Shown piece by piece: positions 3,514-56,960 of a DNA stretch of 64,000 bases. Numbering within the stretch: the stretch's first letter is position 1; the number at the start of each line of letters is the position of its first letter. The notes beneath the pieces are model-generated. The model was not told the DNA's origin, ran no database searches, and worked only from the letters and a program-made list of their open reading frames with translations. The position numbers were made by a program, and so were the translations under genes. Source of the stretch: Polyangiaceae bacterium (GTDB lineage: Bacteria; Myxococcota_A; Polyangia; Polyangiales; Polyangiaceae); the NCBI GenBank assembly GCA_016712345.1, contig JADJRH010000002.1, positions 200,466-264,465 on the forward strand, given 5' to 3'.

Positions 3514-4071
3514 CTAGGGAATGGTCACTTTTTCGAACAAAGCACCTGTGCATCCGGCCTGTTCCAAGCGGTTCTTCAACTCCATAGAAACGATCATCTC
3601 AACGTAAGATCCCCACAATCTGAAACAGTGAACTGGTGGTGGAATCTGACTTGTATCTAAGACTAATTTCGTGATTGACCGGTACTGACCTGCCAGATCA
3701 GCGCGGTGATCACTGGCTGTCCATTTTGTAAATCGAGATTGATTCTCATCCACGCATCGAAGAACCCGAAGGACGTTAACTGCCATCATCTGCGCGGACT
3801 CACCTAGTACAATCGGTAGGATCTGAACGTCGTCCCCGGCGACCTCTCTAAAAATGGTCGCCAACTTAGGTGTTACAATCGGGACTCCGAAACTTGTCAG
3901 CGAAAAATCTAACCTGGCTCCCCGGTGATGTATCGGAGCTGACAATGGGGTTGTCAAATGCAAAGCAATTCCGCCCTTCAGATCAGGTTCGGCACCGTCG
4001 GAAAGAGTAACTTCGCCGATGTGCCATCGGTTCGAACTTCGCATGTCGTCGAAAACTTGAAAGTACATCAT
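3514..4071 (-). CDS. Putative immunity protein for the orphan Rhs toxin tip.
   Basis: The start ATGATG overlaps the TGA of the upstream toxin ORF in an ATGATGA arrangement. The 185-aa gene has markedly lower GC (~48%) than its surroundings. No named family recognised. Confidence 0.6.
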   Translation of the reverse strand: MMYFQVFDDMRSSNRWHIGEVTLSDGAEPDLKGGIALHLTTPLSAPIHHRGARLDFSLTSFGVPIVTPKLATIFREVAGDDVQILPIVLGESAQMMAVNVLRVLRCVDENQSRFTKWTASDHRADLAGQYRSITKLVLDTSQIPPPVHCFRLWGSYVEMIVSMELKNRLEQAGCTGALFEKVTIP

Positions 4072-5552
4072 GGTTGAGTCAGTAATTTGTTAAGATCTGA
4101 ACCAGGCGTACTTAGCTCTTTGCTCATTGCGTCGAGTTCAGATCGAAAGGCTTCCGCGTACCTATCGCCCGAAAGCCCTCGGGTTGCGCGTTCCAAACGC
4201 TGGGACACTTCGCGATGATATGCTTCCGAATGGGGCCCGCGGTGTCCTGGGACTCGCACTTTATTAATTGCGTCATCGAGAGTCATTCCGGCCTTTTCGG
4301 CCATTCTTTCGAACCGCTGCGTCCACGGACCACCGTTGGATGACGAAACACGGTTCTTGTTTGTCATGATATGGTGCACCTGTCCATCCCCACCTTTTGG
4401 CGCCGACATCCATGCGTTAATCCCCGCCAAAATGTTTCCCGCACCACCCACAACGCCGACGGTAGAAACGGCAATTGCCGGCACTCCAACTGCCGCACCT
4501 ACCCCGGTCACGGTCGCCGCCCCGCCGAAGATCTCCCCACCAAGCGACGTGGCCGTGGTGTACAAACCGCCGCCAATCATCCCAAGCGCCTTGCCGCGCT
4601 CAAAGTACACCGAACGGCGCTTTACCAAGCCTTCCGCAAGGGCCGCTTCTTCGGCCACCCCTGCACCGGGTACAATGCCCAATAGTGCCCCACTAAACCC
4701 GCCCGCGATTGTCTGAAGAACGGGATGATTATACCACGGCTCGTCTTCCGCTTCCTCGTCAGGTTCGGCGGTTATGTCTTCCGATCCCGTGCTGTCCACG
4801 TCGGTTTTCGGCTCACCTACCCCGTGTTCCGCTTCTTTCTTAGGTTTGTCTTCCGTCGGCGGCCCGGCCTTTGATCCCGGTACAGAAATCTCCACATACC
4901 CACTCGGGTCCACGGGTAGGGAAGGCTCGCGCTTAGGTTCGCCGTCAAATCCGCTTGGGTCAGTATAGGTCAGCGGATTATTGAAAACGTAACTGTAGGG
5001 GTTCCACGCCTGACTGAATGTCCAATTCTGAATGATGGGATCAGTGCTCAGAAACCTACCCAACTTGGGATCAAACATTCGCCCTTTCATGTTGACTAAA
5101 CCGATCTCCCCATCGTCTTCATGCCCCGTAAATCCAAGCGAAATCGAATCTGGAAAGCTCGCAGGTATAGGGGCGCCCCACTCGGGATTTCTCCGCCGGC
5201 CGAAGGCGTCGTAACTGCGCCGCTCGGTGACCTTCCCATCGGCGTCTGTGAGTACGTCCACCGATCCCAAATGATCCGCGTGCACATACGTTGTGCCTGG
5301 TTGATTACCTCCAAGCGTGACAATCGCGATCACGCGTTCAGGCGAGTGCACATAAAATCGCTCGGTGAGCGCGTTCGCGGCGTCTTTGACACGTTCGTAC
5401 AGGTCGGCGAAATAAAGCGTTTCGTGCGTTGCGGTTAGATCGAGAGTGAACCGCGCTTGCCTGCGCAAAACGGGCTTGCCGTGCTTTGGCTCGCCTTCCT
5501 CGGGATGGTCAGAAACCAACGCGGCACCTAACAAGGTTGCCAAGCCGCCCAA
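4068..5552 (-). CDS. Orphan Rhs C-terminal cassette: an RHS repeat-associated core fused to an alternative C-terminal toxin domain (possibly HNH/AHH-like nuclease).
   Basis: Residues ~40-260 are near-identical to the main Rhs gene's core (THETLYFADLYE...YDAFGRRRNPEWG...GHEDDGEIGLVNMKGRMFDPKLGRFLSTDPI...NPYSYVFNNPLTYTDPSGF). After that it diverges into a different tip containing ...QVHHIMTNKN...GHRGPHSEAYH.... It has its own unique 40-aa N-terminus. Confidence 0.8.
   Translation of the reverse strand: MGGLATLLGAALVSDHPEEGEPKHGKPVLRRQARFTLDLTATHETLYFADLYERVKDAANALTERFYVHSPERVIAIVTLGGNQPGTTYVHADHLGSVDVLTDADGKVTERRSYDAFGRRRNPEWGAPIPASFPDSISLGFTGHEDDGEIGLVNMKGRMFDPKLGRFLSTDPIIQNWTFSQAWNPYSYVFNNPLTYTDPSGFDGEPKREPSLPVDPSGYVEISVPGSKAGPPTEDKPKKEAEHGVGEPKTDVDSTGSEDITAEPDEEAEDEPWYNHPVLQTIAGGFSGALLGIVPGAGVAEEAALAEGLVKRRSVYFERGKALGMIGGGLYTTATSLGGEIFGGAATVTGVGAAVGVPAIAVSTVGVVGGAGNILAGINAWMSAPKGGDGQVHHIMTNKNRVSSSNGGPWTQRFERMAEKAGMTLDDAINKVRVPGHRGPHSEAYHREVSQRLERATRGLSGDRYAEAFRSELDAMSKELSTPGSDLNKLLTQP
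4925..5436. repeat. Inverted copy (~88% nt identity) of the Rhs core segment 24448-24975.
   Basis: Reverse-complement of 5341-5460 aligns base-for-base with 24451-24530 with few mismatches. Protein-level identity is ~95%. Confidence 0.75.
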
Positions 5553-5735: not shown

Positions 5736-7772
5736 CTACTTCGGCTCCGGCGGATCGTAGATTTTCTTTACGTCGGCACCGCCCACGAACGCGTACGAGC
5801 CGGCGCTTCCATACCCATAAGCGACAATTCCAAAGGGCTTGTCACCTGACAGGTTGTGGGCGCCTTCTTGGAGCGGGCAGCGACGGGTTTCATACTCCAC
5901 ACCGGCGAGGTTGCCGGCCGGTTGGGTAGAACATCCACCCGGGGAGGTGCCGTCAATGGAGACGTTGGTGCCCACTTCGGCAACGATGACGACCCAATTT
6001 TGGTTCCACGAGCCGGGGGTTAGAATAACATATTCTGTGCGGTATTGGTCAACCGGTGGGAAGACGGTGAGGGAAGGATCGCCGATGTACGCACCGTCGC
6101 AGTATTGATTGCTGACAAGGATCTGACCAATCATGACGGGGGTGTCGGAGGTGACAACCACGTCGCCCTGGGTCCAGGTGGTTTTGACTTCACCCGGTTG
6201 GAGGGTGAATTGGTTGAATGGGGCGGGGAGGGTAGTGGTGACGTTGGTGACTTCGGCGGCGCCGACAAACCGGAGGATGTCAGGTTCTTTAAAGCCGCCC
6301 GTGGAACGCACGGGGCTGCGGGGAATGACGTAGTTTTTACCGACCGATTCCACCGGGAAGAGTTGGTCTTCAAGGTGGTCAAGGCAGCAGGTGTTGTCGG
6401 TTGTCCAACCGGGTGGGGTGGGAATGTCCACAACGCCGCCGGGAGCACCTGTGCTTTCTACCCCGGAGAATACGGCCACCGGCGCGTTGGCCGTGACAAG
6501 GGTACCTGACAAGTCGGCAATGGTTTTTGGATCGTCTTGGAATGTGCCGTCGTCCGTTTCAAGGTTGAGCACGTCAAACGGGCCAATGGTAAGACTGATG
6601 TCGCCGCCGGCTGGTGTGGCTGCAACGGGGGGATTTCCCTTGATTCGCCAGCTGGGTTTTACTTTGACAACGGTGTTGGGGGTGGTGCCGACAATGGTGA
6701 CATACGAGCGATCGAGAATGTTGAACCCGCCGAATTTGACGGGGTGGCCGGCGGGCCAGCCGATTACGCGGTAATAGGTTCCAAGTGCGTTGGTGGGTAG
6801 AAGAAGCGACGCATCGTTGGAATACGCGTTTTCAAAAACGTTGAATTGGTAGACAACGATGGGCGCGCTTGACTTAATGCGGAATGCGCGCGAGGAGAGG
6901 CAGGTTCCAGGGGAGGCGTAGTCGTTGGGTTGGACGCCGCAGTCAAGTTCACGCGTGGGTAGAACAAGGGCGTACAAGGCCCCGGGGTTGACCTCGGCGT
7001 CGGCGACTTTTGAAAGCTGGAGGGGTTGCCCGGGAGCGGCTTCGTTGATCTCAATGGAGACAACGGCTTTGGTTTGGCCGGCGTTGGAAAGCGCGACACC
7101 CCACGGTGCACTGGCCGGATCGTTGAAGCCGTCTTGTTGGTCAAGGTCAACCGCCCAAAATTCACACCCAACGTTGGAAGGTTGACCTTCTGCCACAACA
7201 CATGCGCTGATGCAGGCGCCGTTGGAACACGTTAAGCCGAGGGCCGGATCGCAGGTTTCTACCGGGGTGGTGCCGATTGTACCTTGGTCGGTGCACTGGT
7301 AGACATCATTGCCGAGGCAGGTTTTTCCACCGGGGTAACAGTCCACACAACCGAGCTTGGGAGCGCACGCTTTGGGGCATGTTTCAGGTGTGCCCGGCGT
7401 GCCGTCGCTGTTGCATGGGATGTAGGAGCCGGCGTTGCAAATGTCGCAAACATCGGAGTTGCCTCCGATGCCGCCGTTGCCGCCGTTGTTGGATGAGGTG
7501 GACGCCCCCGCGCCGCCGCCGCCTGTGGTGTTATTTGGAGCGGCGGAACAACCGAATTGAGATGGCAAAAGCGCCAAGAATAAAAGGGAAGAAATGGGTA
7601 GTAGGGTACGGCTCGAACGCATGAGGGTAGAGTGCCCGAGTGCGCGTGAGAAGTCAGTACGAAACGACCGACGCAGTGCGGTAACTGAGACGTCTCGCAA
7701 CGACCTGAAACGCCTCGCGACGACCTGACATGTTGTACTAAACACGGAGGCACGGACTACACGGAGGTTCAC
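5736..7772 (-). CDS. Secreted cysteine-rich repeat protein, probably a lipoprotein. Likely start MRSSRTLLP at ~7622.
   Basis: Signal peptide/lipobox-like N-terminus (LLFLALLPSQFGC). Multiple CxxCxxGxY...C repeats of the myxobacterial cysteine-rich type, then a large beta-rich region. Confidence 0.7.
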   Translation of the reverse strand: MNLRVVRASVFSTTCQVVARRFRSLRDVSVTALRRSFRTDFSRALGHSTLMRSSRTLLPISSLLFLALLPSQFGCSAAPNNTTGGGGAGASTSSNNGGNGGIGGNSDVCDICNAGSYIPCNSDGTPGTPETCPKACAPKLGCVDCYPGGKTCLGNDVYQCTDQGTIGTTPVETCDPALGLTCSNGACISACVVAEGQPSNVGCEFWAVDLDQQDGFNDPASAPWGVALSNAGQTKAVVSIEINEAAPGQPLQLSKVADAEVNPGALYALVLPTRELDCGVQPNDYASPGTCLSSRAFRIKSSAPIVVYQFNVFENAYSNDASLLLPTNALGTYYRVIGWPAGHPVKFGGFNILDRSYVTIVGTTPNTVVKVKPSWRIKGNPPVAATPAGGDISLTIGPFDVLNLETDDGTFQDDPKTIADLSGTLVTANAPVAVFSGVESTGAPGGVVDIPTPPGWTTDNTCCLDHLEDQLFPVESVGKNYVIPRSPVRSTGGFKEPDILRFVGAAEVTNVTTTLPAPFNQFTLQPGEVKTTWTQGDVVVTSDTPVMIGQILVSNQYCDGAYIGDPSLTVFPPVDQYRTEYVILTPGSWNQNWVVIVAEVGTNVSIDGTSPGGCSTQPAGNLAGVEYETRRCPLQEGAHNLSGDKPFGIVAYGYGSAGSYAFVGGADVKKIYDPPEPK

Positions 7773-7890
7773 GGAGATTTTCTATATTTCGGGCTGCAAT
7801 GGATGTCAGAAACGTTGTTTGGAACCGCGTTCTGCGAGCCGATTGCAGCCCAACAAACAAAGAAACTCCGTGTTCCTCCGTGATTCCGTG
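7742..7890. repeat. Nested palindromic repeat element, copy A: CACGGAG x3-4 / T-rich / GGGCTGCAATGG / central hairpin / GATTGCAGCC / A-rich / CTCCGTG x3.
   Basis: Seen in sequence. A second copy with the same architecture lies at ~55146-55318. Confidence 0.7.
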
Positions 7891-7961
7891 TTGAAATGGA
7901 CGGTTCAGTTGGAGAAACGCACCAGGTTCTTGCCGGGTGGCGTCAGTTACCCAGAAGGCCC

Positions 7962-8669
7962 TTAATTGGAAGTGGCGGCGGTTTCAGAAGGAGGAGGCGA
8001 GGATGGGGAGGTGGAAGGTGTATTCAAAGCGTCATTGGAGATTTCCCAAACGAGTTGAGTGTTGCCCTGCGCTCCGGCGAAGCGAATACCAAACCACTTG
8101 GCTTTTGTGGAAATGGTGGGGCGACCCTCGGCTGTGACGCGGGGAAAACGAATGCGAAACGCCTGTCGAAACACGTTATTGTAGGGGAAATAAGTGCGTT
8201 CAATGGCGTTTGGTTTTTTAATGAGTTGAATTTCTTCAGGCGCTGTTTCGTTGCCTGTGTCGTCGATGAGCCGAACGATCCATGCGCTGTCGGGGCGGGT
8301 CAGATCGTTGTAGCGGCGCTCGCCGCCGTAGATGGCCACGAAAAACTGGTGGCGGCGTTTGGTTTCATCGAGCGCTTTTTCAAGGAGTTTTTTGCGCTCA
8401 TCAATGGTGAGGCGGTAGTCCTGAACGTAGCGGACTGTGTACGCCCAGCGAAAATCCCACGATTCAAACGTGGCTGTCGCTGTGAGGAAGTTGTCGAGTT
8501 CGCTCAGCGAAAACAGGCGTTCGGTGCGGGTCCAATGGCGAAGCACCGATTCATAATCGGTGGCGACATATTCACGCGGGCCTTCTGCGAGCGATACCAA
8601 CTGCGGTGCGCAACCGCACGCAGCAAATGCTGACACGGCGACGGTAAGCGCGGTGGAGAGGCGAAACAC
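7962..8669 (-). CDS. Hypothetical lipoprotein.
   Basis: N-terminal signal with lipobox (VSAFAACGC). No domain recognised. Confidence 0.55.
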   Translation of the reverse strand: MFRLSTALTVAVSAFAACGCAPQLVSLAEGPREYVATDYESVLRHWTRTERLFSLSELDNFLTATATFESWDFRWAYTVRYVQDYRLTIDERKKLLEKALDETKRRHQFFVAIYGGERRYNDLTRPDSAWIVRLIDDTGNETAPEEIQLIKKPNAIERTYFPYNNVFRQAFRIRFPRVTAEGRPTISTKAKWFGIRFAGAQGNTQLVWEISNDALNTPSTSPSSPPPSETAATSN

Positions 8670-9434: not shown

Positions 9435-10514
9435 TTAACGCGACGAAGAGACGATTTTGGATCCTGGGGCACCTGCGCGGGCAAGCTTTTCTTCAACCAT
9501 GAGATCGGCCACGCGATACGTGGGAGTGAGTGTACTCATGCTTCGCTCGGCGATCTCGTGGATTGTGTCGTAGATCTTGAGGGTGCGGTCGCGCGAGATC
9601 GTGGCGTTGTACCCAACCACTTCTTGAGCAACGTTGATGAGGCCGCCCGCGTTGATGGCGTAATCGGGCGCGTACAAAATGCCTCGTTGATTGAGGTCGT
9701 CGCCGTGGCGAGGCTCGTGGAGCTGATTGTTGGCCGCGCCGGCCACGATTTTGGCTTTGATGCGCGGTACAGTTTCATCGTTGATGGCCGAGCCGAGCGC
9801 GCATGGGGCGAGCACGTCACATTCAATTTCAAAGATGTGGTCGAGCGGCACGATGTCGGCGCCAAACTCGCGCTGCGCGCGTTCGCTCTTGAGCGGATCC
9901 ACATCGGCCACGCTGAGCTTTGCGCCGCACGCCGCCAGCTCTTTGCAGAGGTGGTAACCCACGTGTCCAACGCCCTGAACCGCCACGTGCAGGCCTTCGA
10001 GTGAAGAGCGACCGAGTTTGAGTTGGGCGCACGCTTCAATTCCCCTTCGAACGCCGAGCGCTGTGAACGATGAGGGATCGCCCGAACCTCCATTTTTCAC
10101 ATCGACACCGGTCACGTGTTTTGTTTCGTGACGAATCAGCTCCATGTCTTCAAGGCCGGTGCCCGAGTCTTCGGCCGTGATGTACCGACCCCCAAGCGCA
10201 TCTACAAATCGCCCGAAAGCAAGGAAAAGAGCGGCCCTGTCAAACACCGGAGCGGCGGGTCGCAAGAGTACACTTTTGCCACCGCCGTGAGGTACACCTG
10301 CGAGCGCGGCCTTGTAAGTCATGCCGCGCGCGAGACGCAGCGCGTCAACCAATGCCTCCTCTTCTCGGGCGTATGCGAGGAAGCGACAACCTCCAAGCGA
10401 AGGGCCCAATCGAGTGTCGTGAATGGCAACAATGGCGCGCATTCCGCTCGCTGGATCTCGGCGAAAATGCACTTCGCCGTAATCGTAGGAGGCGAGGTGT
10501 GAAAAGACGTCCAT
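9435..10514 (-). CDS. ldh: Leucine (Glu/Leu/Phe/Val-family) dehydrogenase.
   Basis: The family signature GVPHGGGKSVL is present, with a Rossmann NAD domain (GVGHVGYHL). The likely start is MDVFSHLASYDYGEVHF, the internal Met of the ORF. Confidence 0.85.
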   Translation of the reverse strand: MDVFSHLASYDYGEVHFRRDPASGMRAIVAIHDTRLGPSLGGCRFLAYAREEEALVDALRLARGMTYKAALAGVPHGGGKSVLLRPAAPVFDRAALFLAFGRFVDALGGRYITAEDSGTGLEDMELIRHETKHVTGVDVKNGGSGDPSSFTALGVRRGIEACAQLKLGRSSLEGLHVAVQGVGHVGYHLCKELAACGAKLSVADVDPLKSERAQREFGADIVPLDHIFEIECDVLAPCALGSAINDETVPRIKAKIVAGAANNQLHEPRHGDDLNQRGILYAPDYAINAGGLINVAQEVVGYNATISRDRTLKIYDTIHEIAERSMSTLTPTYRVADLMVEEKLARAGAPGSKIVSSSR

Positions 10515-19173: not shown

Positions 19174-22100
19174 ATGAACGTGCGAACGTCGTTTCCTTTA
19201 GGCAGCAATCAACGCGCGGCGAACAAGCCACCCTTGCGGCTGACTTGGTTCGCGCCGTGGGTGTTTCTGATCATCCTTTCAATCACACAAGGCGCCTGCA
19301 CCTGCATCACAAGCGAGGCGCCGCCCCCGCGCGAAATCGTCGCATGTGTACCCCAACACGAAACGCGCGCTACCAAACTTCCAACCTCCCGCGCAAGTGA
19401 AACCGCCGCCGCCGGTAGCCTGCAAGGGACATTCTCTGTCACCCCTACCGGTGAAGCTTCTTTTGTCGTTCCTATACCCACGCCACCGGGTAGAGCCGGG
19501 ATAGAGCCACGGGTAGCCCTCGCCTATAACAGCGCCGAGGGCGACGGTGTAGCGGGTCAAGGCTTTTCGCTCTCGGGTTCATCGGCGATCACGCGTTGCC
19601 CTAAGAACATGGCCCAAGATGGGGAGATCTGCGCCGTCCGGTATGACGCCGAGGATAAACTCTGTTTGGATGGTCAACCGCTTGTACAAGTCGCCGAAGA
19701 AACCGGACAACTGGAATACCGGACCTTACCCGACACCTTTGTGAAAGTGGTAGGTCATGCGCCGATCGCAGGCGTTCCGCAATGGTTTGAAGTGTTCGCT
19801 CCGAATGGCGTGATCACCGAGTATGGTAGAAGCGCCTCAACAAGACCGCGCGGACCCAACAATTCTACCCGCGCTTGGTTAGCCGCCAAAACCCACGACG
19901 GCCGCGGCAATGCGTTGATCTACGGGTATTGTTTCGCCAATGCCGAAGAGTACACCGCTGAGTACGCATTGGATGAAATTCGGTATACCCAATTTGACGG
20001 GACACCCGCCCTTGAACCGACACGGGCCGTCAAGTTTGTGTACGCGCAACGCAAGCCCGACCAAACGAGGCTTTCTTTTTCGCATGGAATGGTCGTTCAA
20101 CGCTCTTTACAACTCAACGAGATCCAAATGGTCGGCCCCGGTGAAGAATTGGTCACATGGGTGGACCTGGAGTACACAAAGAGTGAAGCCACCGGCCGCA
20201 CCTTACTCACAAAAATGGAAGAATGCGCTGCGGATGGAGTCTGTAAACCCGTTACGCTTTTTTCATACTCCACCCATGAAAAAGGCTTTATCGATCAATC
20301 TACCGAACTCGATTCGCCCACGTCCCGCAAGGCAAGCCCAATGCTTGTGGACATGGACGGCGATGGGCTTGACGATGTGTTAATCCCTGACACGCATCCC
20401 GCCCTTTCTACCCCTGCAAACCCGATCACAGAATGGCGGCTTTTCCACAATGGCACCTTGCCCGGTGAAAGTGTCACCTTTTCAGATCTGACCATTCCTT
20501 ACGTTCAAGATGACGTGTTTGTGGCCGATCCCAGCGGTCCCGCCGACCCTACCCAACTACAGCCCGAACTTGGAACGGTGCTTGATTACAACCAAGACGG
20601 CCGAAAAGATATCCTTCTCCATGACATCTACCAACAGGGGGCAACATGGAAGATTTTGATCGCCAAACCCGCCCCTCAAGCCGGACCCAACACCCCCACG
20701 TTTGAGATGGTAGATACAGGGATCGCTCGCCCCTTTGGCATCGGCGCCCAACCTGTACCACCTGCGTTGTCTACCAAAAACGGCTCCATGCACTTGGCCG
20801 ACGTCGACGGCAATCGCGTGGCCGACTTGATCCAATGCACCGATCACAGTGACTCGCTCACCGGTGACCCTTCTAAACCTGAATGGAAGGTGCACCGATG
20901 GTTGCCCGCGCACGGGGGTATACCTCTTGGATTTGACCCGGAAGGAGAAGTGATCGAAGCGCTCGAATTATACCGATGCGACGTCGACCTGAAAACGGTT
21001 GACATCGACGGAGACGGAAAAACAAATCTTCTTGTCGTGCCGCTTGAAGTGGCAGGTGATGGATCTGAAATTCAGGGCGTAAATTACGAAGCGCTTTCCC
21101 GCAACGAAAACGGCACGTGGGAAATTCGCGAAACAAACCTAACCATTCCCGCCCCAGGTGGACGCGTTGTATTTCTCGATGTGAACGGGGATGGTCTACC
21201 CGATGCAGTAGAGTCAGGTTTTTCGAACGGCGGGCTTTATACACTCCTCAACACCGGCAACGGCTTTGCACCCTCGCAGCTCAGTTTGGATGGTGGCGGT
21301 TACGGCGGGCAGGATGCGCTTTTCCGCTTTGCAACCCCAATCGACGCCAACGGAGACGGCAGGCAAGATCTTTTGGTGCCCATGTTCGCCGATGGACTCG
21401 GCGCCAGTGGTGAACCGCCCGAGTGGGTGTTTCTCATCGCACAACCGGGCATCCAATCGACGGGCACGTTCACCATCGAACCATCGGGCATTCCCTTTAA
21501 GCCGCTTTTGGGTGAAGCGGTCACTCTCGCCGATCCTCACGGGCCGCGCATCGGCGATCTGAACGGCGATGGAGCTTCGGATGTTGCCATTTGGTTGAGT
21601 GGCAAGCTCCACATTTTCGAAAATCAAGCGCGCGATCAAGACCTGTTGATCGGTGTACACCAAGGAACCAACCCGCATGATCCTACCGATCCTGAATATG
21701 TGCCCGACGTGGCCATTTCGTATGGCCATCTGACAGACTCTTCTATCACGACCAACACCGATCCAGATGCTTTGTCCAATGAGAGCGCGCTCTACCTTTC
21801 GCAATGGGACAAGGCCAATGGGTGCACCTACCCGCGACGGTGCAGCGTTGGCGCGCGCCGCGTTGTTTCGGAGTATCAGACGTTCGACGGGGTAGATGCT
21901 GGGCGCCGGTATAGCTTGCGGTACCGCGATGGACGGATATTCGTTGCACAGGGCTTTTTTGGGGTTCGGTGCGCGGTTTCTGACCGACCTCGACACCGGA
22001 GCGATCACCGCTGACTTTTTTGATAACCAGTCGTTTGACGCCACGTTTCAGACCTACCCATTTGCAAAGGTCCGATCGGCCCAATGGCGATCTACACCCG

Positions 22101-25100
22101 GTTGGGAAGGGTTGCCCGATCCTCAAAAGGTAGAACTGTCGTTTCTAAACACGACACGCCTTGTCGTGCCCACGAACAACAGCAAAACCTATTTCACGCT
22201 CACCACAGAAAACCGTTTGCGCCGAGCGCAAGGCGAATTTGACGCTACGGCGCAAGGGTCGAGTTTGCTGGAGTACACCCGAAGCGTTGAAAATGGTGCG
22301 GCAAACGTCCCCATCTTGCGCGACACAACCGCCAAGGTCACCAACTTCGACGACGTTGGAAATGTGCTTTCTGAAACGTCCGCGACGGTAGATGTCAACC
22401 TGACAACCACCATCGAGCGTACGGTAAAAAACGACGTTGATACCTGGAATCTTGGCCAAGTCACGCAGCAAAAAGAGTGCAGCGCGGCGAATGGGTTGAC
22501 GCAGTGTCGATCCATCCAACGATCGTTTACCCCTTACGGGGAGGTTGCGGGCGAAACGGTACAGGATGAAGCCGATCCCACAACGCGGATTGAGGTCAGT
22601 TACGGGCGCGACCATCATGGAAATGTGACCTCCCTCAGCGCGAAAGATCCCAAAGGCGCCGAACGCACCTCCACGATTACGTACGATTCAACTGGGCTCT
22701 ACCCTCGCGAACATACCAACCCGGCCGGCCATGTCACACGCACCGAGTTTGATCCACGGCTTGGCGTCGTGACCCGAATCACTGACGCAAATGGGCTTGT
22801 GACTGAGCATCAGGTAGATGGTTTCGGGCGCCTGACATTGAAAAAGCGCCCCGATGGTACAAGTACAAGTTTCACCATTACTCGCACGAGAGACGGGGCA
22901 CACAACCAGAACGCCTGGCGCATTCGCGAACGGACGATCGAAACAGGAGGGCAGGACGAAGAGATCGAACGCGACGCTTTCGGTCGAGTGGTTCAACATT
23001 GGTGGTATGGTCCGACACCGGAAGGTCAAACCAACGCGCCGCGGATCACGCAACGATTCGAATATGATCGGTTGACGGGTAGAGTCGCCCGAAGGTCAAT
23101 CCCCATGCGCGAGGATGCCGCGCCCAACAAAGTCGAATGGGATGAGTTTGTCACCGACGGGTTAGGCCGCGAGGTCAAACGCACCACGGCTTTCGGCGCC
23201 ACCACGGAAACGGAGTTTGATGGACTGACCATCAAGACGACCGATCCGCTTGGAAACGTGAGCATCGCAGAAAACGACGCCTTGGGTAGAAAGATCGCCG
23301 TCACCGACGCCGCCAACGGCGTTACGGTGTACACCTACGGGCCCTTTGGAAAGTTAACCAAAGTCACCGGACCCGACGGTGCAACCACGCTCACCACATT
23401 CGATGCGATGGGTAGACCGGTTGAAACGGTAGACCCCGACAAGGGAGGCACTCAACAAACCTACAACGCCTTTGGTGAGCTGGTTTCATTGGTAGACGCC
23501 CTCGGAAATGAAACCACCTTTGAACGTGATCCGCTCGGTCGAGTGACGAAGCGCCTCGACGATTTGGGCGCTACCACCGAAATCACAACGTGGACATTTG
23601 ACACGGCCCCGAACGGAAAAGGGAAGATCCACCATGTAAAGAGTATCGATGCAGAAAAAACGTACACCTATGATAAATTGGGAAGGGTAGAAAGTGTCAG
23701 CCTGGAGGTGACGGGGAACGGGCCCGCGATAACAGGAAAGATCGGTTATGATCTCTTCGGCCGCGTCGAAACCCTGACCTACCCAACGGCAAAGAGCAGC
23801 GTACCTTTTGCAGTCGTCCAAGACTACGACGCGCACGGGTTTACCCGTAAGGTGCGCGACCGAAACATCGATCTCACCTATTGGCAGTTGACCGGGGTGG
23901 ACGACGCCGGCAGGTTTGCGCAGGAACAAATGGGCAATGGAGTTTCTACTACCCATCGAACCTATTTCGCCGCGCAGCAAAGGCTAAGAAACATCACCAC
24001 AGAAAACGCGGCCGGTTTGGTGCAAAGTTTGGAGTTTGAATGGGATGCTCGCCTAAACCTGAAAAGCCGCACCGATGATTTGCAGCCACAACACACCACC
24101 GAACGATTCAGGTACGACGCCCTTGAGCGGCTAACGTGCTCGTATTTCTCGACGCAAGAAGATGTTTCGGCGCCTTGCGATTGGAGTTACCAATACGCGC
24201 CGAACGGCAACTTGACATACAAGTCCGACGTGGGCACGCTGGAGTATAACGATCCTACCCATCCTCACGGTGCCACCGCGGCCGGAGGGGCAGCATACCA
24301 ATACGACGCCACCGGCAACCAAACGGCTCGCCCCGTGGGGGTGAAGGTTGCGTACACCGCGTTTGATCTACCCAGAACGATCACCCAACCGAGCGGAGTG
24401 ATCTCGTTTGGATATGACGGCGACCAAAAACGTGTACGCAAGACAACCGCAACGCACGAAACGCTTTATTTCGCCGACCTGTATGAACGGATGAAAGACG
24501 CCGCGAACGCGCTCACCGAGCGATTTTATGTGCGCTCGCCTGAACGCGTGATCGCGATTGTCACCCGCGGAGGCAATCAACCGGGCACAATGTATGTGCA
24601 CGCCGACCACTTGGGATCGGTGGATGTACTCACCGATGCCGATGGGAAGGTCACCGAGCGGCGCAGTTACGACGCCTTTGGCCAAAGGCGAAATCCCGAG
24701 TGGGGCGCCCCAATACCCGCGAGCTTTCCTGACTCGACATCGCTTGGTTATACCGGCCACGAAGATGATGGAGAGATCGGTTTAGTCAACATGAAAGGAC
24801 GGATGTTTGATCCCAAGTTGGGTAGGTTTTTGAGCACCGACCCGATTGTGCAGGATTGGACATTTAGCCAAGCGTGGAACCCTTACAGCTACGTTTTCAA
24901 TAATCCGTTGACCTATACCGATCCAAGCGGATTTGACGGCGAACCCAAGCGTGAGCCGGGCGTGGTGTACATGCCGGAGGCAAATATCAAGGTGCCAGTC
25001 CCGACGAACGGGACCGCGCCACCCAAGGAGGACAAGCCCAAAGAAGAGAAGAAACACGGCGTGGGTGAAGGCGAAAACGATGTCAACACCACCGGGTTGA

Positions 25101-25774
25101 TCACCCCATTGGTTGACGCGGACGAAGAAGGGGAAGACGATCAACCGTGGTATCACCATCCCATCGCGCATGGGATCATCGGATTTGGCGCGGGGCTTGG
25201 ACTTGGCTATGTCCCCTTTGCTGGAATAACGGAGGAAATTCTAGAAAAAGCGCACGTACTGAATCCAGTCTCCCCGACGTATCACTATGCCAAGTCGGCG
25301 GGCATGAGCATTGGAGGGCTGATCGCCATGCTCCAGGGCTTTAATGAAATTGCGGGAGCTGTGATGCTCGCTCCCGAAATCGGTCCAGGCGGAACCGTGG
25401 CCATTTCTAACATGGCATTGGCCCAAGTGTCAGGTGGTGCACTGAATGTATACGCCGGCACGCAAGCGATGATGTCCGGGCCGAACGGACGGCAGAGCGC
25501 TGGGCCGTCCGCCACTCGCGGTGAAACTCCGGCCGCGCGTGCGGGCCGCGAAGCTCACAAGAATTGGAATCCAGGAAACGGTTTTGAAAAGGAGTTTCGA
25601 TTGCCGAGCGGTAAACGACCGGATGCGGTAAACTTCGAAACGAAAGAGGTGTTGGAATTGAAACCAAACAACCCGGAGGCAATTCGAAAAGGCGAAGCTC
25701 AACTCCGGGAATATGTTGATGAGTTGAATAAGCATTTTGGCGGTGGATTCACCGGTCGCGTAGTTACGTATTAA
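19174..25774 (+). CDS. Rhs/YD-repeat polymorphic toxin (~2200 aa) with a C-terminal PD-(D/E)xK nuclease-like tip. The reading frame is broken by a 1-nt indel in a T6 run at 21955-21960.
   Basis: Track ORFs 19174..22014 and 21896..25774 overlap. Removing one T from GGGCTTTTTTGGGG joins ...RIFVAQGF to LGFGARFLTDLD... The N-terminus is SpvB/TcC-like with FG-GAP-type Ca-binding repeats (DMDGDGLDDV, DVDGNRVADL, DIDGDGKTNL, DVNGDGLPDA, DANGDGRQDL, DLNGDGASDV). These are followed by many YD repeats and an RHS core (GRMFDPKLGRFLSTDPI). The tip carries ...RPDAVNFETKEVLELK... (PD..ExK). Confidence 0.85.
24448..24975. repeat. Rhs core segment duplicated in inverted orientation at 4925-5436.
   Basis: See the paired repeat feature. 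The boundaries are where the main and orphan sequences diverge. Confidence 0.75.
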
Positions 25775-28239: not shown

Positions 28240-29295
28240 ATGTTGTCGCTCACCCCCACTGAACTGGTAGAACTGCTCCTGTCGCTGCCGGCTGAGCGCA
28301 CACCGTTTATTTGGGGGCCCCCCGGCATTGGCAAAAGCGCCCTCGTGCGTGAGGCGGCAGACCTGTTGGAGCTTCCGTGTGTTACCCTTTTGGGTACCCA
28401 AATCGCACCTGAAGATCTCATCGGCGTGCCCCGCATTCGCAACATGGGTGAAAGTTACGTCACCGAGTTTTGTCCACCGCGCGCCATCCTTCGGACAGAG
28501 CCGTTTTTGCTTTTTATCGATGAGCTGAACAGCGCGGTTCCAGATGTTCAAAAAGCGTTCTACTCCCTTATTCTCGACAGGAGATTGGGGGATTACGTTC
28601 TACCCACCGGCTCGCGTGTTGTGGCCGCCGGCAACCGGGTAGAAGATCGCGCGCTTGTAAGGCCCATGGCCACGGCGCTTTCCAATCGCATGGTGCATGT
28701 GGCGCTCGCGCCCGACGCAAATGCCTGGCTTTCGTGGGGTGCTACCAACGGTGTACACGCGCTCGTGCTTGCGTTTGTTCGCGCCCGGCCCGACCGTTTG
28801 TTTGAGCCTCCCCCCACCGATTCTACCCCTGCCTACCCAACTCCGCGCGCATGGCACATGCTTTCCGACGCGTTATTTGTGGTGGGTGAACACCTGTGGG
28901 CCGCGCTTGCCGCAGGATCGGTGGGTGACCGCGCCGGGGCTGAGTTTTCGGCGTTTGCCAAACGCGCACTGGAGGCCCCCTCGCTTGAATCGCTGGCGGC
29001 CGGAAAAGCCTCGGTTCCTCGCGATCCAGAACTCATTTATTTTCTCGGTGCAAGTTGCATTGCCAAACTCGCATCTTCCCATCCTTCCGATGGTGAACTC
29101 TGTGCCAAAGTGGTTTCTTTACTGGGGGCAGCCTCCAAAGAAGTAGCCGTTTGGACGGTGGACACAGCGCTGGGTAGAAAGGACAAAACGGTGGCCCTCA
29201 CCGCGTTTGAAAACTACGTCCGCACCAGCGGATCGCAGGTGCTTGTTGACGTGATTCGGCTTGGTCGCTACGCGCGTGATCCGGCGCCGCGATGA
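28240..29295 (+). CDS. MoxR/CbbQ/NorQ-type AAA+ ATPase.
   Basis: Walker A (GPPGIGKS), Walker B (LLFIDELN) and sensor (AAGN) motifs are present. The ~350 aa size is typical of the Q-type partners of VWA proteins. Confidence 0.85.
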   Translation: MLSLTPTELVELLLSLPAERTPFIWGPPGIGKSALVREAADLLELPCVTLLGTQIAPEDLIGVPRIRNMGESYVTEFCPPRAILRTEPFLLFIDELNSAVPDVQKAFYSLILDRRLGDYVLPTGSRVVAAGNRVEDRALVRPMATALSNRMVHVALAPDANAWLSWGATNGVHALVLAFVRARPDRLFEPPPTDSTPAYPTPRAWHMLSDALFVVGEHLWAALAAGSVGDRAGAEFSAFAKRALEAPSLESLAAGKASVPRDPELIYFLGASCIAKLASSHPSDGELCAKVVSLLGAASKEVAVWTVDTALGRKDKTVALTAFENYVRTSGSQVLVDVIRLGRYARDPAPR

Positions 29296-51173: not shown

Positions 51174-51240
51174 AGCTGTCGAGCACATTTGCCAACGTGG
51201 GGAACGAAACGCGCGCCGTTCAGGTTTGTTACGTGCCGTT

Positions 51241-52086
51241 TCAGATTTTTACGTAGTGGATGGGTAGATCGCGAATCCACGTGCGCTGTCGGCGAACAAA
51301 TACCCGCGTTGCGCGCACAATGGTAGGTGCCAATTCGCTCTCGGGGATTTGACCGCGTATGTAACTCAGCACTTCACGGTAGCCCACGGACTGCATGGCT
51401 CTCGTGTTTTCATAACCCAGATCAACAAGGTGTTTCACCTCATCGATCCAGCCTGTTTGAAGCCAATGGGTGGTTCGTTTGGCAATGCGCTCGTCGAGTT
51501 CTGCGTCGGCCCTGTCGGCGGCGATAAAGCGCGCTTTGTACTTTTGCTCCCGAAACCCGTGCTCGCTTTGCAACTCCGTCATTGTTTTGCCCGACACGGC
51601 AAACACTTCTAGAGCGCGACTGACGCGCACAAAATCGTTGGGCGACAAGCGTGCTGCGGCCACGGGGTCGATCAACTGGAGTTGGGCGTGCAACGCTGCG
51701 CGCCCCTGAGACTCGGCAATGAGAGTGTGCTCGGCCCGCACGGCGGGGTTTGCTCCGGGCATGGGGGCGAGCCCCCACACAAGGGCTTTGACCCACAAGA
51801 AAGAACCGCCGCATACAATAGGTATTCTGTTGCGACCGCGAATATCGGAGACCGCCTGTTCTGCCATTTCAGCGTAGCGGCTCGCTTCAAGCTGAACGCT
51901 CGGGTCAACGACACTCAGCAGATGATGAGGCGCGCGGGCGAGTTCTTCGCCGGTTGGTTTTCCTGAGCCGATGTCAAAGTGCGTGTACACCTGCACGCTG
52001 TCGGCATTAACGATTTCTCCACCGAACTTTTGCGCCAACAAGATGGCCAGTTCTGTTTTGCCGCTCGCTGTTGGCCCCACAACCAC
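51241..52086 (-). CDS. miaA: tRNA dimethylallyltransferase MiaA.
   Basis: P-loop GPTASGKT, DSVQVY and HHLLSVVDP are present. GTG start. Confidence 0.85.
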   Translation of the reverse strand: MVVGPTASGKTELAILLAQKFGGEIVNADSVQVYTHFDIGSGKPTGEELARAPHHLLSVVDPSVQLEASRYAEMAEQAVSDIRGRNRIPIVCGGSFLWVKALVWGLAPMPGANPAVRAEHTLIAESQGRAALHAQLQLIDPVAAARLSPNDFVRVSRALEVFAVSGKTMTELQSEHGFREQKYKARFIAADRADAELDERIAKRTTHWLQTGWIDEVKHLVDLGYENTRAMQSVGYREVLSYIRGQIPESELAPTIVRATRVFVRRQRTWIRDLPIHYVKI

Positions 52087-54330: not shown

Positions 54331-55050
54331 ATGCACACAACCACACGATGGCTTTCGTTCTGCGCTCTGTTTTCCCTTGCGCCGCTGGCCGCGGTGGCGT
54401 GCGGAGACGGTACGCCGGACGCAAACACTCCACCCCAACCAACGGCTGAACCCACGGCGAGTGCGTCGGCCGGTCCCACAGCGGCGCCCACCGCTGTTCC
54501 CACGGCGGAGCCCACGGCCACGCCAACCGCCGAGCCAACAGCGTCCGCAAGTGCGTCGGCACCTGTCGACAAGCCCAAGTCGGGTCGCCCGCCGGTGCTC
54601 CTGGCAGATGCCAAGTCCATCACCGACACATTCGGTTTTTCGCCGGGTGCCAAGCTTGAACTTGGTGACAAAGAAATTGCCACTCTTCGCATTCCCGAAG
54701 GGGCTCTTTCGCAAGCCACTGTTGTCACATTCGCTATCGACACCAAGTGCAAAACCACAGGTGTCGTTACCGGCAAACTCTACAAGATCACACCTACCAT
54801 CCCACCCGCAGCAACTCCCGCGTCGGTTCCTTCAAACAACGGCGCCCCGTACACGCTGATCCTCCCCGGAGTTAAAAAGCGTGATTTGAACCTGGCAATT
54901 GGCACGTACGCCAAAGATGCAAAAGGAAACGAGGCAATTGTTTGGAAGATTCTCGGGCCCGCCAAAGTAGACGAGTCGGGGATTTTTGAATTTCACCTCG
55001 ATACTCTCCCGGACGGTTGTGTACACCTGACAAACAAGCCGCCCACCTGA
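54331..55050 (+). CDS. Hypothetical lipoprotein with an (A/P/T)-rich repeat linker.
   Basis: Lipobox (AAVACG). The linker repeats AEPTA/AAPTA units. Confidence 0.5.
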   Translation: MHTTTRWLSFCALFSLAPLAAVACGDGTPDANTPPQPTAEPTASASAGPTAAPTAVPTAEPTATPTAEPTASASASAPVDKPKSGRPPVLLADAKSITDTFGFSPGAKLELGDKEIATLRIPEGALSQATVVTFAIDTKCKTTGVVTGKLYKITPTIPPAATPASVPSNNGAPYTLILPGVKKRDLNLAIGTYAKDAKGNEAIVWKILGPAKVDESGIFEFHLDTLPDGCVHLTNKPPT

Positions 55051-55145
55051 CCTCCTGGGTCTCGTGGGTAGCTGGCAGCCCCAGAGCGACGGCTGAAGCG
55101 TCACGCCAAGACCTGAAGCGCCTGGATGCCTGTGACGTCTCTTTC

Positions 55146-55318
55146 ACCACGGAATCACGGAGAACACAGAACACACGGAGTTTTTTTGTTTCTTGGGCTG
55201 CAATGGGTACACATCATCCGTGATCCCAACCTGACAGGGGATCGGTCAGGTGGTGCGAGACGATTGCAGCCTAAAATACAAAAAACTCCGTGGATCTCCG
55301 TGATCTCCGTGCCTCTGT
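55146..55318. repeat. Nested palindromic repeat element, copy B (same architecture as 7742-7890).
   Basis: CACGGA(G) x3 / T7 / GGGCTGCAATGG / inner hairpin CCTGAC..GTCAGG / GATTGCAGCC / A-rich / CTCCGTG x3. Confidence 0.7.
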
Positions 55319-55419
55319 GTTGATTACGAAGTATCAGGAATCGAGACGTCACAGGTCATTGTGGGCGAGCTTAGCGCTGCGGAGCGCGTTTCCCGGCCGC
55401 TTTGTGAGATGCTTGGCGC

Positions 55420-56856
55420 ATGCGTTGTTGTTTTACCCCTTTCTCTCGGATGATCGCGGCGGCGGCTTTTGGAACGCTCTTGTTTGGCAGCAATGAGGCG
55501 TCGGCTCAAAAGCTGCTCGGCGCAAATGTACACCAGTCGATCGATGTGGGGCATGACGCAACCGAAGCGGCTTCGCTCGGTTGGGTACGCATTGACCTGA
55601 ATTGGTTTCAATGTGAACCCACTCAGGGAAACTACGATTTCGCTTTGCTTGACCAAGTGGTGGACGCCGCCGTCGCCCGAAATTTAAAGGTGTTGGCGGT
55701 GATTGGATATGGGCCGTCATGGGCCTCGTCCGCCGACCCGATGGGCGACGGTTCGATCAACGATGTTCCCATCGACGGCACGTATCCGGCGTTTGTGACA
55801 GCGGTGGTAAACCACTTTCAGGATCGCGTTTCTCACTACGAGTTGTGGAACGAGCCCAACTTGGAACAATTTTTTGAGGGGTCGATCAGCGACTACACAA
55901 CTCGAATCTTGGTGCCGGGCGCGGCGGCCGTTCATTCGGCGTGCCCTTCATGCAAAGTGGTAGCACCGGGCTTGGCGTCCATTGGTTCAGAATACGATCA
56001 GTGGCTTGATGCGTCCCTCGCGGCTGCCAAAGATCAAATTGATATCGTCAGCGGTCACATTTACGCGGGATTTCCTGTGGATTCTCCAGGTTCAGGGTCC
56101 ACGAGTGACAGCTTCTTTAACAAACTCGACAGCCACCGCATTCTCGAAACGGGGGGCACGGTTGTCTACGAAGGCCCGCTTTCGTTTCGAGAAGTGATGG
56201 ACAAACACGGCGTCAATAAGCCGTTTTGGCTCACCGAAACGGGACGTGAAGCCACGCTTGGCAATGCCGAAGAAGAAGCGGCGCAGACGCTCTATTACCG
56301 GCGTGTGATTGAGGCCATGCTCGTTCGAGATTGGTGGGAGCAAACCATCTTTTATGAGGCATTCGATGAGCCGAACACCGGATATGAGTGGGGCCTTGTG
56401 TTGCACGATCCGGCGGCCCCGAACGGTTACCAAGCCAAACCGGTTGTGGGGTTTTTGAAAAACGCTGTGGCTGTGGTGCCGGGTTTGGGAGGAAAAGGCC
56501 CGGCCTGCAATGACGGGCTCGACGACGACGGCGACGGGTTGAGTGATTACCCGGAAGATCCTGATTGCACGAGCGTGCTCGACCCGGATGAAAGTGGACC
56601 CCTCGGTCGCGGCACAGGGGGCAGCGGGGGTGCAGGCGGCGGCGGTTCAGGAGGAAGCACCGGCGGAGCGGCGGGCGGCGGAAGCGGCGGTTTCGCCGGC
56701 AACCCGGAAAAGCCTGCCGATTGTTCCTGTGGTGTGTACGCAAGCCACAATGAAGACTTCACGTGGATCGGCGGCGTGGGTGTCTTGGCGGCTGCTTTTG
56801 GATCCAGGCTTCGACGAAAGCGTACACAAAAGATGTGTACGCAAAACGGGCGTTAA
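55420..56856 (+). CDS. Clan GH-A (GH5-like) glycoside hydrolase with a C-terminal MYXO-CTERM sorting domain.
   Basis: Signal peptide, acid/base motif YELWNEPN, nucleophile motif FWLTETG, a Gly-rich linker, then CSCGV...WIGGVGVLAAAFGSRLRRKR. Confidence 0.7.
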   Translation: MRCCFTPFSRMIAAAAFGTLLFGSNEASAQKLLGANVHQSIDVGHDATEAASLGWVRIDLNWFQCEPTQGNYDFALLDQVVDAAVARNLKVLAVIGYGPSWASSADPMGDGSINDVPIDGTYPAFVTAVVNHFQDRVSHYELWNEPNLEQFFEGSISDYTTRILVPGAAAVHSACPSCKVVAPGLASIGSEYDQWLDASLAAAKDQIDIVSGHIYAGFPVDSPGSGSTSDSFFNKLDSHRILETGGTVVYEGPLSFREVMDKHGVNKPFWLTETGREATLGNAEEEAAQTLYYRRVIEAMLVRDWWEQTIFYEAFDEPNTGYEWGLVLHDPAAPNGYQAKPVVGFLKNAVAVVPGLGGKGPACNDGLDDDGDGLSDYPEDPDCTSVLDPDESGPLGRGTGGSGGAGGGGSGGSTGGAAGGGSGGFAGNPEKPADCSCGVYASHNEDFTWIGGVGVLAAAFGSRLRRKRTQKMCTQNGR

Positions 56857-56960
56857 CAGTGAAAGCGGTCGCCGGTGTACACGCGGTAAAACAGGTCGGA
56901 GCGCACAGGCAAAACACGTCGTCTCGGACGCGGTAAAACAAGTCGGCGCTGTTGTGTACG
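56820..56960. repeat. Array of ~3.5 degenerate ~40-bp direct repeats (GTGTAC[AG]C...GCGGTAAAACA[AG]GTCGG) spanning the GH5 stop and the 3' intergenic region.
   Basis: Seen in sequence between convergent genes. GCGGTAAAACAGGTCGG and GCGGTAAAACAAGTCGG are 46 nt apart. Confidence 0.55.

Follow-up and report, generated by a model that had tools for sequence, protein, structure and literature searches.

The stretch of DNA analyzed here (hereafter the window) comprises 64,000 nucleotides of contig JADJRH010000002.1 of a Polyangiaceae bacterium and contains two related palindromic elements built of short heptamer arrays, designated copy A and copy B. Copy A is located between two minus-strand genes and copy B between two plus-strand genes, the two elements being oppositely oriented relative to transcription. 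The preliminary description of this DNA assigned both elements to the 5′ intergenic regions of secreted-protein genes; the intergenic position is correct, but the restriction to 5′ regions is not, since each copy lies between two co-directional genes encoding lipoproteins or other secreted proteins. The window is ordinary chromosome, with mutL, miaA, clpA/B-like, sigma factor and rhs toxin genes, and no transposase was found among its genes. From the data presented below, the chances appear to be even that A and B are gene-less, non-autonomous members of a palindromic insertion family that resemble transposable elements of the miniature inverted-repeat type (MITEs), the full-length members of this family carrying a GxxExxY nuclease gene.

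A second reading of the sequence confirmed both palindromes, their position and their general layout. From the outside to the centre, each arm of either copy consists of three ~19-bp units, the motif TTCA(A/C), three to four CACGGAG-type heptamers with a period of 8–10 nt, a T-rich tract, and GGGCTGCAATSG. There are 16 exact CACGGAG/CTCCGTG sites in the 64 kb, and ten of them are inside the two ~150-bp stretches. The sequence GGGCTGCAATGG occurs exactly only at positions 7791 and 55195 of the window, each time with a near-perfect inverted partner, and few repeats in the window, direct or inverted, are longer than the arm pairs of A and B. The arms contain 4 + 3 heptamers in A and 4 + 4 in B, with 89 and 105 nt, respectively, between the innermost heptamers. 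The pentamers at the outer edge of the arrays in the four arms are CTAAA, TTCAA, TTCAC and ATCAA. The parts of both elements and their host genes are listed in Table 1.

The size of ~160 bp given previously turned out to be too small. Similarity and palindromy extend ~55–65 bp further outward, and the real size is ~265–285 bp, with revised limits of ~7685 to 7948 for copy A and ~55093 to 55375 for copy B. The added parts, external to the heptamers, are three ~17–21-bp 'CTGNNNCGYC' units per arm, also written as CTGNNNCG units, which were recognized in a four-arm alignment, in local alignments and by Tandem Repeats Finder. Of the four arms, three (A-left, B-left and B-right) have an outer similarity that reaches significance, whereas A-right is degenerate and its similarity is weak. 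The left outer modules of A and B align with a score of 32, and the left and right outer modules of B with a score of 27, neither of which was reached in any of 500 shuffles. Tandem Repeats Finder detected 2.2 copies of a 20-bp period at 7685–7728, and the local alignment of copy A to copy B also begins at 7685. At the ends of copy A, a weak inverted repeat can be noted (GGTAACTGA at 7680–7688 and TCAGTTACC at 7946–7954), and these ends pair in the predicted fold.

The suggestion that each element can fold as one long stem-loop holds well: both copies fold far better than shuffled sequence (copy A has a DNA folding z-score of −5.0 and copy B one of −7.9; none of 200 shuffles folded equally well). 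The identity of arms is 0.73–0.88 between the elements, and 0.77 and 0.81 within them. Because the identity within an element is no higher than that between elements, the arm sequence itself, and not complementarity alone, is conserved between A and B; this comparison gave no sign of element-specific compensatory change.

Table 1. Parts of copies A and B and the genes flanking them (positions in the window).
Feature	Position	Strand	Description
IgGFc-binding-domain lipoprotein, host gene downstream of A	5736..7622	-	Pfam PF17517, E = 6e-61; signal peptide/lipobox after Met encoded at 7622
Copy A, left outer module	7685..7742		three ~20-bp units CTGAGACGTCTCGCAACGAC / CTGAAACGCCTCGCGACGAC / CTGACATGTTGTACTAAA; terminal CTAAA in place of family TTCAC
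Copy A, left heptamer array	7743..7776	+	CACGGAG 7743, CACGGAC 7751, CACGGAG 7760, CACGGAG 7770; spacers 1, 2, 3 nt
Copy A, inner part	7777..7865		T-rich 7777-7790; GGGCTGCAATGG 7791-7802; 37-nt centre; CGATTGCAGCCC 7840-7851; A-rich 7852-7865
Copy A, right heptamer array	7866..7895	-	CTCCGTG 7866, CTCCGTG 7876, TTCCGTG 7884; then TTGAA at family GTGAA position
Copy A, right outer arm	7896..7955		degenerate; similarity to other arms weak or absent
Lipoprotein, host gene upstream of A	7962..8669	-	orthologue of 222-aa gene of relative L001
Lipoprotein with Pro/Thr-rich linker, host gene upstream of B	54331..55050	+	co-directional with the gene downstream of B
Copy B, left outer module	55093..55147		three CTGWRRCG units; TTCAC end 55143-55147
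Copy B, left heptamer array	55148..55180	+	CACGGAA 55148, CACGGAG 55156, CACAGAA 55165, CACGGAG 55174
Copy B, inner part	55181..55285		T-rich; GGGCTGCAATGG 55195-55206; 54-nt centre with own CCTGAC/GTCAGG hairpin; CGATTGCAGCCT 55261-55272; A-rich
Copy B, right heptamer array	55286..55324	-	CTCCGTG 55286, 55296, 55305; CTCTGTG 55313; then TTGAT
Copy B, right outer module	55325..55375		GAGACGTCACAGG mirrors left-arm CCTGTGACGTCTC
Glycoside-hydrolase-like protein with MYXO-CTERM-like tail, host gene downstream of B	55420..56856	+	homologue names and tail

The gene order around copy A (PAD, Glu/Leu/Phe/Val dehydrogenase, the 222-aa gene and the IgGFc gene) is conserved in the closest available relatives. 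The spacer occupied by copy A is 339 bp long in the window, while the orthologous spacer has 95 bp in two relatives (L001 and L002) and 145 bp in a third (L003). The palindrome is absent from these spacers, and conserved bases are found beside the stop and start codons on both sides of it. The shorter spacers of the relatives, the missing palindrome and the conserved flanking bases together indicate that copy A is an insertion of ~250–280 bp. The corresponding empty site for copy B was not found in the relatives, where the glycoside hydrolase orthologues are non-syntenic and the spacer upstream of them is 71–81 bp long. The orthologous spacer of L003, a relative with 12.8 Mb, carries a 24-bp tandem repeat of its own in four copies (9855–9950, GCTGACCGTCCGGCAATCGCTCCC); thus, the same spacer is filled by different repeats in different lineages. 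The window has further intergenic tandem repeats, one just past the stop codon of the glycoside hydrolase gene (56880–56946, 23 bp × 2.8) and one between mutL and miaA (51215–51254, 20 bp × 2).

Relatives of the two elements were sought in genomes, metagenomes and viral contigs. Strict patterns that included the core (GGGCTGCAAT), composed of two heptamers plus core for the species-representative genomes and of a heptamer, T-tract and core for the metagenomes, gave no matches in 185,579 species-representative genomes and in the JGI metagenomes. A loose 16-base pattern gave single, taxonomically random matches, 38 of them in IMG/VR, none of which was confirmed by a hidden Markov model (HMM) of the arm. 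A pattern of three heptamers without the core (CACGGAG-N1-3-CACGGAG-N1-3-CACGGAG, 21 specified bases) was matched by no fewer than 120 contigs in each of the two collections, the metagenomes and IMG/VR, while ~0.08 matches would be expected in IMG/VR, as scaled from the 38 matches of the 16-base control pattern. The array-bearing contigs span 31–74% G+C. The arm consensus derived from 155 arrays consists of an A-rich patch, TTCAC, and CACGGAG-R-CACGGAG-R(R)-CACGGAG. Among the matches listed, a convergent (CTCCGTG)n-GTGAA array is located 10–260 bp downstream in 64 of 120 metagenome loci and in 38 of 120 IMG/VR loci. In some contigs the copies are clustered, with three to five per 14–20 kb (L273 and L287).

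The signature of this family, as it emerges from the compared loci, is TTCAC-(CACRRAR-N1-3)x3 ... variable loop ... (YTYYGTG-N1-3)x3-GTGAA. The arms in the window agree with it: TTCAC, TTCAA or ATCAA precedes variants of CACGGAR/CACAGAR, and the spacers of 1, 2 and 3 nt increase inward. Both A and B have arms of at least three CACRRAR heptamers with a period of 8–10 nt and TTCAC or a near variant in front; both have a convergent partner with mirrored spacing, at a distance characteristic of the family (a loop of 10–260 bp, or ~400 bp if coding); and both are inserted between co-oriented genes, with absence in relatives established for A only. Judged by this architecture, A and B are shown to be members of a widespread family of heptamer-array palindromes. 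When the HMM of the window arm was used, other loci matched it over the heptamer part only, and none of them had the window core or the outer units.

Several loci of this family have a more complex organization. In L185 (1743–2051), a (CACGGAA)3...(TTCCGTG)3 element is nested within the loop of a (CACGGAG)3...(CTCCGTG)3 element, and the loops of heptamer-array hairpins can therefore serve as insertion sites for further copies. In L158 (999–1582) and L159 (7953–8250), arrays form head-to-tail strings (right array, ~27–54 bp, left array, and so on); in L158, a GxxExxY gene lies between the units, and the arrangement recalls a cassette array. In the IMG/VR contig L357 (4741–5978), an open reading frame (ORF) is located between arrays 1.2 kb apart and resembles, by eye, a VapD/Cas2-type endoribonuclease (MYAIIFDLDQETLKQTYG...), which may be another cargo or a coincidence.

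The pairing of the arms is well supported by covariation across copies. In 18 of 19 elements with exact 3 + 3 arrays, the spacer lengths of the two arms are mirrored, compared with 5.1 ± 1.8 for shuffled partners (maximum of 11 in 2000). The spacer bases pair at chance level, with purines on the 5′ arm and pyrimidines on the 3′ arm. In an alignment of 62 elements, which included the outer pentamer and three heptamers per arm, standard pairs occupy 95% of the cells. Changes on both sides were found in 20 of 26 pairs (8.8 ± 1.5 in shuffles, with 0 of 500 reaching this level), and there are 93 compensatory cells as against 23 ± 4. Complementarity had played a part in the choice of the heptamer columns; the outer five pairs are free of this selection, and they co-vary too (TTCAC/GTGAA, TTAAC/GTTAA, ATCAA/TTGAT, CGGGC/GCCCG and others). 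The aligned copies thereby show that the palindrome is maintained. This evidence fits an RNA hairpin, a DNA hairpin, or a symmetric recognition of duplex arms alike. Of the idea of a small structured RNA, raised in the preliminary description, the pairing of the arms is thus strongly supported; covariation is equally expected of a DNA palindrome, and no Rfam match was found.

Against Rfam 15, the window gave no match at the gathering score, A and B gave none at E ≤ 1, and 20 canonical loci gave tRNA only. Scans for sigma-70 promoters and terminators found nothing inside A or B; the sole terminator-like match (7514–7530) is inside the coding sequence of the IgGFc-binding protein and is at chance level. 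Several other candidates were rejected. A bidirectional intrinsic terminator does not agree with a T tract before the inner hairpin and an A tract after it, which on both strands is the reverse of a terminator. A sigma-54 site at TGCGAGNCGATTGCA lacks, by eye, the GG of the −24 element. There is no reverse transcriptase that would suit a retron msr/msd, the neighbours being lipoprotein and glycoside-hydrolase genes. In the case of a CsrA sponge, every ANGGA motif is paired.

The loops of the convergent pairs proved to be of two classes. Among 52 clean convergent metagenome pairs, most loops are 15–261 bp long and have no credible ORF, while four have a length of 390–445 bp and are coding. All four of the latter (L179, L265, L158 and L267) encode a GxxExxY protein of ~125 aa, with matches to TIGR04256 'GxxExxY protein' (E = 2e-42 and 4e-43) and PF13366 PDDEXK_3 (E = 2e-41 and 9e-41). 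The L267 gene is flanked by CACGGGG/CCCCGTG arrays, which are outside the reach of the search pattern. Sampling that started from the protein showed the canonical architecture, with co-varying heptamers, around GxxExxY genes of six phyla or candidate phyla. In Bacteroides finegoldii (GxxExxY protein WP_032839887), the left arm contains CACAGAG, CGCAGAG and CACGGAG, and the right arm three CTCTGTG heptamers followed by GTGAA. The left and right heptamers are CACAGAG/CTCTGTG in Bernardetia, CGCGAAG/CTTCGCG in Sphingomonas parapaucimobilis, CGCAGAG/CTCTGCG in Gemmatirosa and CACAAAG/CTTTGTG in an IMG/VR viral contig. A Planctomycetota metagenome-assembled genome has TTCAC-(CACAGAG)3-gene-(CTCTGTG/CTCCGTG)3-GTGAA between thiS and thiF, and an Acidobacteria one also has the canonical architecture around a GxxExxY gene. 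Wherever the surroundings are annotated, the gene has the orientation of its two neighbours and takes up a very short spacer between them.

GxxExxY proteins are extremely numerous: of the 8,000 candidates scored in a single search, 7,999 reached E ≤ 1e-10, and the source names include Bacteroides, Planctomycetota, Acidobacteria and an archaeon. One Bacteroides cluster of these proteins (P0288) is present on at least 1000 contigs. The protein is a stand-alone PD-(D/E)XK nuclease. Residues E29, D69, E79 and K81, and with them the catalytic D...ExK, are invariant; therefore, the nuclease is likely active. Searches of PADLOC and PHROGs with GxxExxY gave nothing useful, and no sequence relative was found in the PDB. 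According to the Pfam source paper (PMC3424549), PF13366 has an unknown function and has undergone multiple horizontal transfers.

Filled and empty sites of the cassette can be compared directly in two cases. In S. parapaucimobilis, fabD and fabG are separated by 464 bp containing the cassette, while the same genes are 32 bp apart in S. paeninsulae. Similarly, the cassette is located between radA and a FAD gene in B. finegoldii, and these genes are separated by 13 bp in Parabacteroides distasonis. In Phocaeicola massiliensis (L286, 560–1260), the spacer between radA and the FAD gene holds a ~215-aa Cys-rich ORF and no heptamer arrays; given this ORF and the GxxExxY cassette of B. finegoldii, the spacer was struck by different insertions. 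These comparisons of related genomes show that, at precise points between genes, some genomes carry a cassette and others lack it.

A gene-less element of L290 (9816–10480) retains the last ~15 nt of the GxxExxY gene, the same hairpin of the 3′ untranslated region (UTR) and the right array; by its sequence, it is a plain internal-deletion derivative, which shows that gene-less copies can derive from gene-carrying ones. Its hairpin, ATCCAATCGG...CCGATTGGAT, is followed by AAAATAC ahead of the right array and resembles GCAATCG...CGATTGC plus AAAATAC of copy B in the window. A general role of the inner GCAATSG..CSATTGC hairpin as the 3′ UTR hairpin of the cassette was rejected, because only 3 of its 29 occurrences in 1.7 Mb are near arrays. 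In four contigs (L179, L265, L287 and L290), gene-less and gene-carrying copies of the same contig share termini or the heptamer variant. In L179, ~20 nt beyond the arrays are common to both types of copies on both sides, which parallels the outer modules of A and B.

Taken together, the arrangement would be that of a selfish gene with non-autonomous palindromic derivatives. A full-length member carries the ~125-aa GxxExxY gene (TIGR04256/PF13366) in its loop and is seen as a cassette inserted into the few bases between co-oriented host genes. In most copies, the gene would have been lost by internal deletion, leaving hairpin-forming repeats of 60–300 bp. The version of this Polyangiaceae lineage is a composite, in which outer ~19-bp units and heptamer arrays are combined with T/A tracts and the inner GGGCTGCAATSG palindrome; it may have spread to at least two spacers, presumably moving as a single unit. 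The nuclease, acting in trans from a full-length copy at another place in the genome, would recognize the arrayed arms as a duplex or as an extruded hairpin or cruciform, and the break made by it would open the way for a copy of the element to enter a new spacer, in a manner similar to homing or templated by repair. In the transcript, the arms would pair into a long stem and sequester the insert, which may be the reason why operons can tolerate such an insertion. The two copies in the window are probably neutral passengers of the host; if they affect the flanking lipoprotein genes at all, this would be a by-product of the RNA hairpin.

A number of observations weigh against the proposal that A and B are derivatives of a nuclease cassette. 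No GxxExxY gene was found in the 64-kb window, and a trans-acting copy in this organism is hypothetical, as are transposition and homing. The window core (GGGCTGCAATGG...GATTGCAGCC) and the outer modules were found nowhere else in the searched genomes and metagenomes, a set that does not include the source genome, and two copies only are known in this lineage. They share ~60 bp outside the TTCAC/GTGAA boundary of the family, which implies that the unit that moved in this lineage exceeded the canonical element in size. A target-site duplication would appear as an enrichment of direct repeats, but 66 family members show none at any offset, and no duplication is evident at A or B, where the element boundaries are uncertain. 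Moreover, flanks of another kind surround ~40% of the sampled GxxExxY genes: in Prevotella, a Fusobacteria bacterium, Persicobacter and L279 they are direct repeats or 7-mers of another sequence, and in Treponema a single inverted repeat. Finally, among the matches listed, no GxxExxY gene was found in the 1.06 Mb of 120 array-bearing IMG/VR loci, and only four were found in 120 metagenome loci; since the arrays vastly outnumber the gene, the gene could be a passenger.

The last two points lead to the main rival explanation, in which the heptamer-array hairpin is an independent repeat similar to MITEs or to repetitive extragenic palindromes (REPs), spread by another enzyme or by host replication and repair, while the GxxExxY genes are separate selfish genes that land or survive in the loops, and the copies in the window are unrelated to the nuclease. 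The nesting in L185, which marks the loops as insertion-prone, also speaks for it. However, the arrays and the gene are jointly absent at both empty sites, the gene-less copy of L290 was derived from a gene-carrying one, the heptamer variant and outer termini are common to both types of copies within a contig, and no other candidate enzyme was seen beside the arrays. We consider this explanation rather unlikely. A role at the RNA level is less probable still. Here, the elements would be long mRNA stem-loops, cut by RNase III or stabilizing or insulating cistrons, and retained for their effect on the flanking secreted-protein genes. The location of A and B between co-directional genes, their very stable stems, and the arm pairing kept by compensatory changes and mirrored spacer lengths agree with such a role, and the constant co-orientation of the GxxExxY genes with their neighbours implies read-through transcription. 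At the same time, A and B are opposite relative to transcription, the spacer bases pair no better than by chance, the elements have neither an Rfam match nor a terminator or promoter signal, and the relatives manage without the element in the spacer of A. A comparison of G·U with A·C on the two strands did not separate RNA from DNA, given a sample biased by the selection of G-rich arms and unreliable gene calls in high-G+C contigs.

The preliminary description also considered clustered sites for a regulator, that is, operators of a host transcription factor that recognizes CACGGAG and co-regulates secreted-protein genes. Repeated 7-mers with an 8–10-bp period upstream of two lipoprotein or secreted-protein genes do give such an impression. 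Nevertheless, the same architecture occurs at 31–74% G+C in many phyla, beside unrelated genes and around a mobile nuclease gene; the heptamers change on both arms together between lineages; the orthologous genes of relatives have no arrays; and a period of 8–9 bp fails to keep the sites on one face of B-DNA. This makes the operator explanation highly improbable. A mere local segmental duplication, or a chance resemblance, would suit the fact that only two copies, 47 kb apart, are known, but nothing is shared outside the elements, the flanking contexts are unrelated, and the arms belong to a family present in hundreds of contigs; the duplication is effectively refuted, and we assign this possibility next to no weight.

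Among the categories proposed earlier, a MITE with heptamer-array terminal inverted repeats (TIRs) comes closest. The elements are dispersed, exist in gene-carrying and gene-less forms, have filled and empty sites and include a deletion derivative; A and B themselves have terminal inverted repeats, a small size and no coding capacity. As a classical MITE they do not qualify: neither a DDE transposase partner nor a target-site duplication was found, nor a parent insertion sequence (IS) with a transposase and the same ends, the sole gene found between such ends being that of the 125-aa PD-(D/E)XK nuclease. With bacterial MITEs (Correia/CREE, ERIC/IRU, RUP and Nezha) the elements share a short length, an intergenic position, the lack of coding capacity and terminal inverted repeats; those MITEs likewise arise by internal deletion of a coding element, and their transcripts can form RNase III-sensitive hairpins. 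In contrast to them, the 'TIR' here is a phased-heptamer array and the parent is only ~0.45 kb long.

The comparison with REPs and bacterial interspersed mosaic elements (BIMEs), also made earlier, is valid as an analogy, in that a gene lies between inverted repeats and many copies are gene-less, but the defining features of REPs are missing. The arm anatomy differs from that of a REP, which is a GC-rich palindrome of 20–40 nt headed by GTAG or CGTC, and the transposase of such systems, RAYT, was looked for in the window only. By analogy, the arrangement works most like a REPtron (REP/BIME with RAYT, tnpA-REP) or an IS with its MITEs. REPtrons similarly combine a small gene between inverted repeats with scattered intergenic gene-less palindromes, and their repeat co-varies with the lineage. 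They differ in having an HUH/Y1 transposase instead of a PD-(D/E)XK nuclease (PF13366) and a single hairpin instead of arms with arrays of at least three 7-mers; in addition, GxxExxY genes are often multi-copy and inserted inside operons.

Other systems share particular features with the elements described here. Intervening sequences of 23S rRNA (Leptospira, and S23p of Coxiella) also have a long stem, its loop carrying a small ORF, as well as ORF-less variants, and an essential transcript can tolerate them since their stem is excised; however, they occupy rRNA helices and not mRNA spacers, their ORF encodes a four-helix bundle (PF05635), and they have no heptamer arrays. Free-standing PD-(D/E)XK homing endonucleases such as I-Ssp6803I are small stand-alone enzymes that spread their own gene by cutting empty sites. 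Unlike the GxxExxY cassettes, to our knowledge, they have no flanking inverted repeat arrays and no gene-less derivatives, and their targets are specific gene sequences. Integron cassettes with their attC sites resemble the family in their imperfect palindromes of conserved architecture and variable sequence, in promoter-less genes co-oriented with neighbours, and in strings of units (as in L158 and L159), but here there is no integrase and no R/L box signature, and the insertions are dispersed and single. Long inverted arms built of short tandem repeats are also typical of eukaryotic foldback elements, which belong to another domain of life and another scale and have a different, partly unknown transposition machinery.

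Some other features of the window were observed. The product of the gene at 55420–56856 has a Gly/Ser-rich linker, a Cys-containing hydrophobic tail and an Arg cluster, which form a MYXO-CTERM-type sorting signal, and its homologues are named accordingly. A 513-nt inverted repeat (4924–5436 and 24445–24957, 89% complementary) joins the RHS/AHH-nuclease ORF 4068–5552(−) with the large RHS/Tox-REase-9 gene 21896–25774(+), and the former looks like an orphan rhs toxin tip with the shared core-end sequence. At 28240–33244, a set of three genes encodes a MoxR-like AAA ATPase, a DUF2201/VWA protein and, last, a bacterial homologue of vault proteins, 847 aa long, in which shoulder and repeat domains of the major vault protein were recognized (PF11978, E = 5.5e-30).

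More broadly, and with a probability that we place slightly short of even, GxxExxY proteins may be the nucleases of an unrecognized class of minimal mobile elements: a ~0.45-kb cassette bounded by inverted phased-heptamer arrays, inserted into operon spacers in many phyla and giving rise to gene-less hairpin copies that far outnumber it, with the pair in the window as a lineage-specific composite. A literature search on the repeat strings, GxxExxY, PF13366 and TIGR04256, incomplete in its coverage, revealed no description of the element or of the link, although a note by a family-database curator may exist. For the window itself, the consequence is modest: two spacers of lipoprotein genes hold probably neutral insertions, which would form ~130-bp stems if transcribed. 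If the proposal is true, the huge family TIGR04256/PF13366 of unknown function would obtain a testable role, its members being the enzymes that serve a selfish hairpin cassette, and the heptamer arrays, as their candidate substrate in DNA or RNA form, could be read straight from the gene flanks. It would also give a name to an intergenic repeat of pan-phylum occurrence, which neither Rfam nor the searchable literature contains and which annotation pipelines leave blank, and would account for oddly long spacers between co-transcribed genes.

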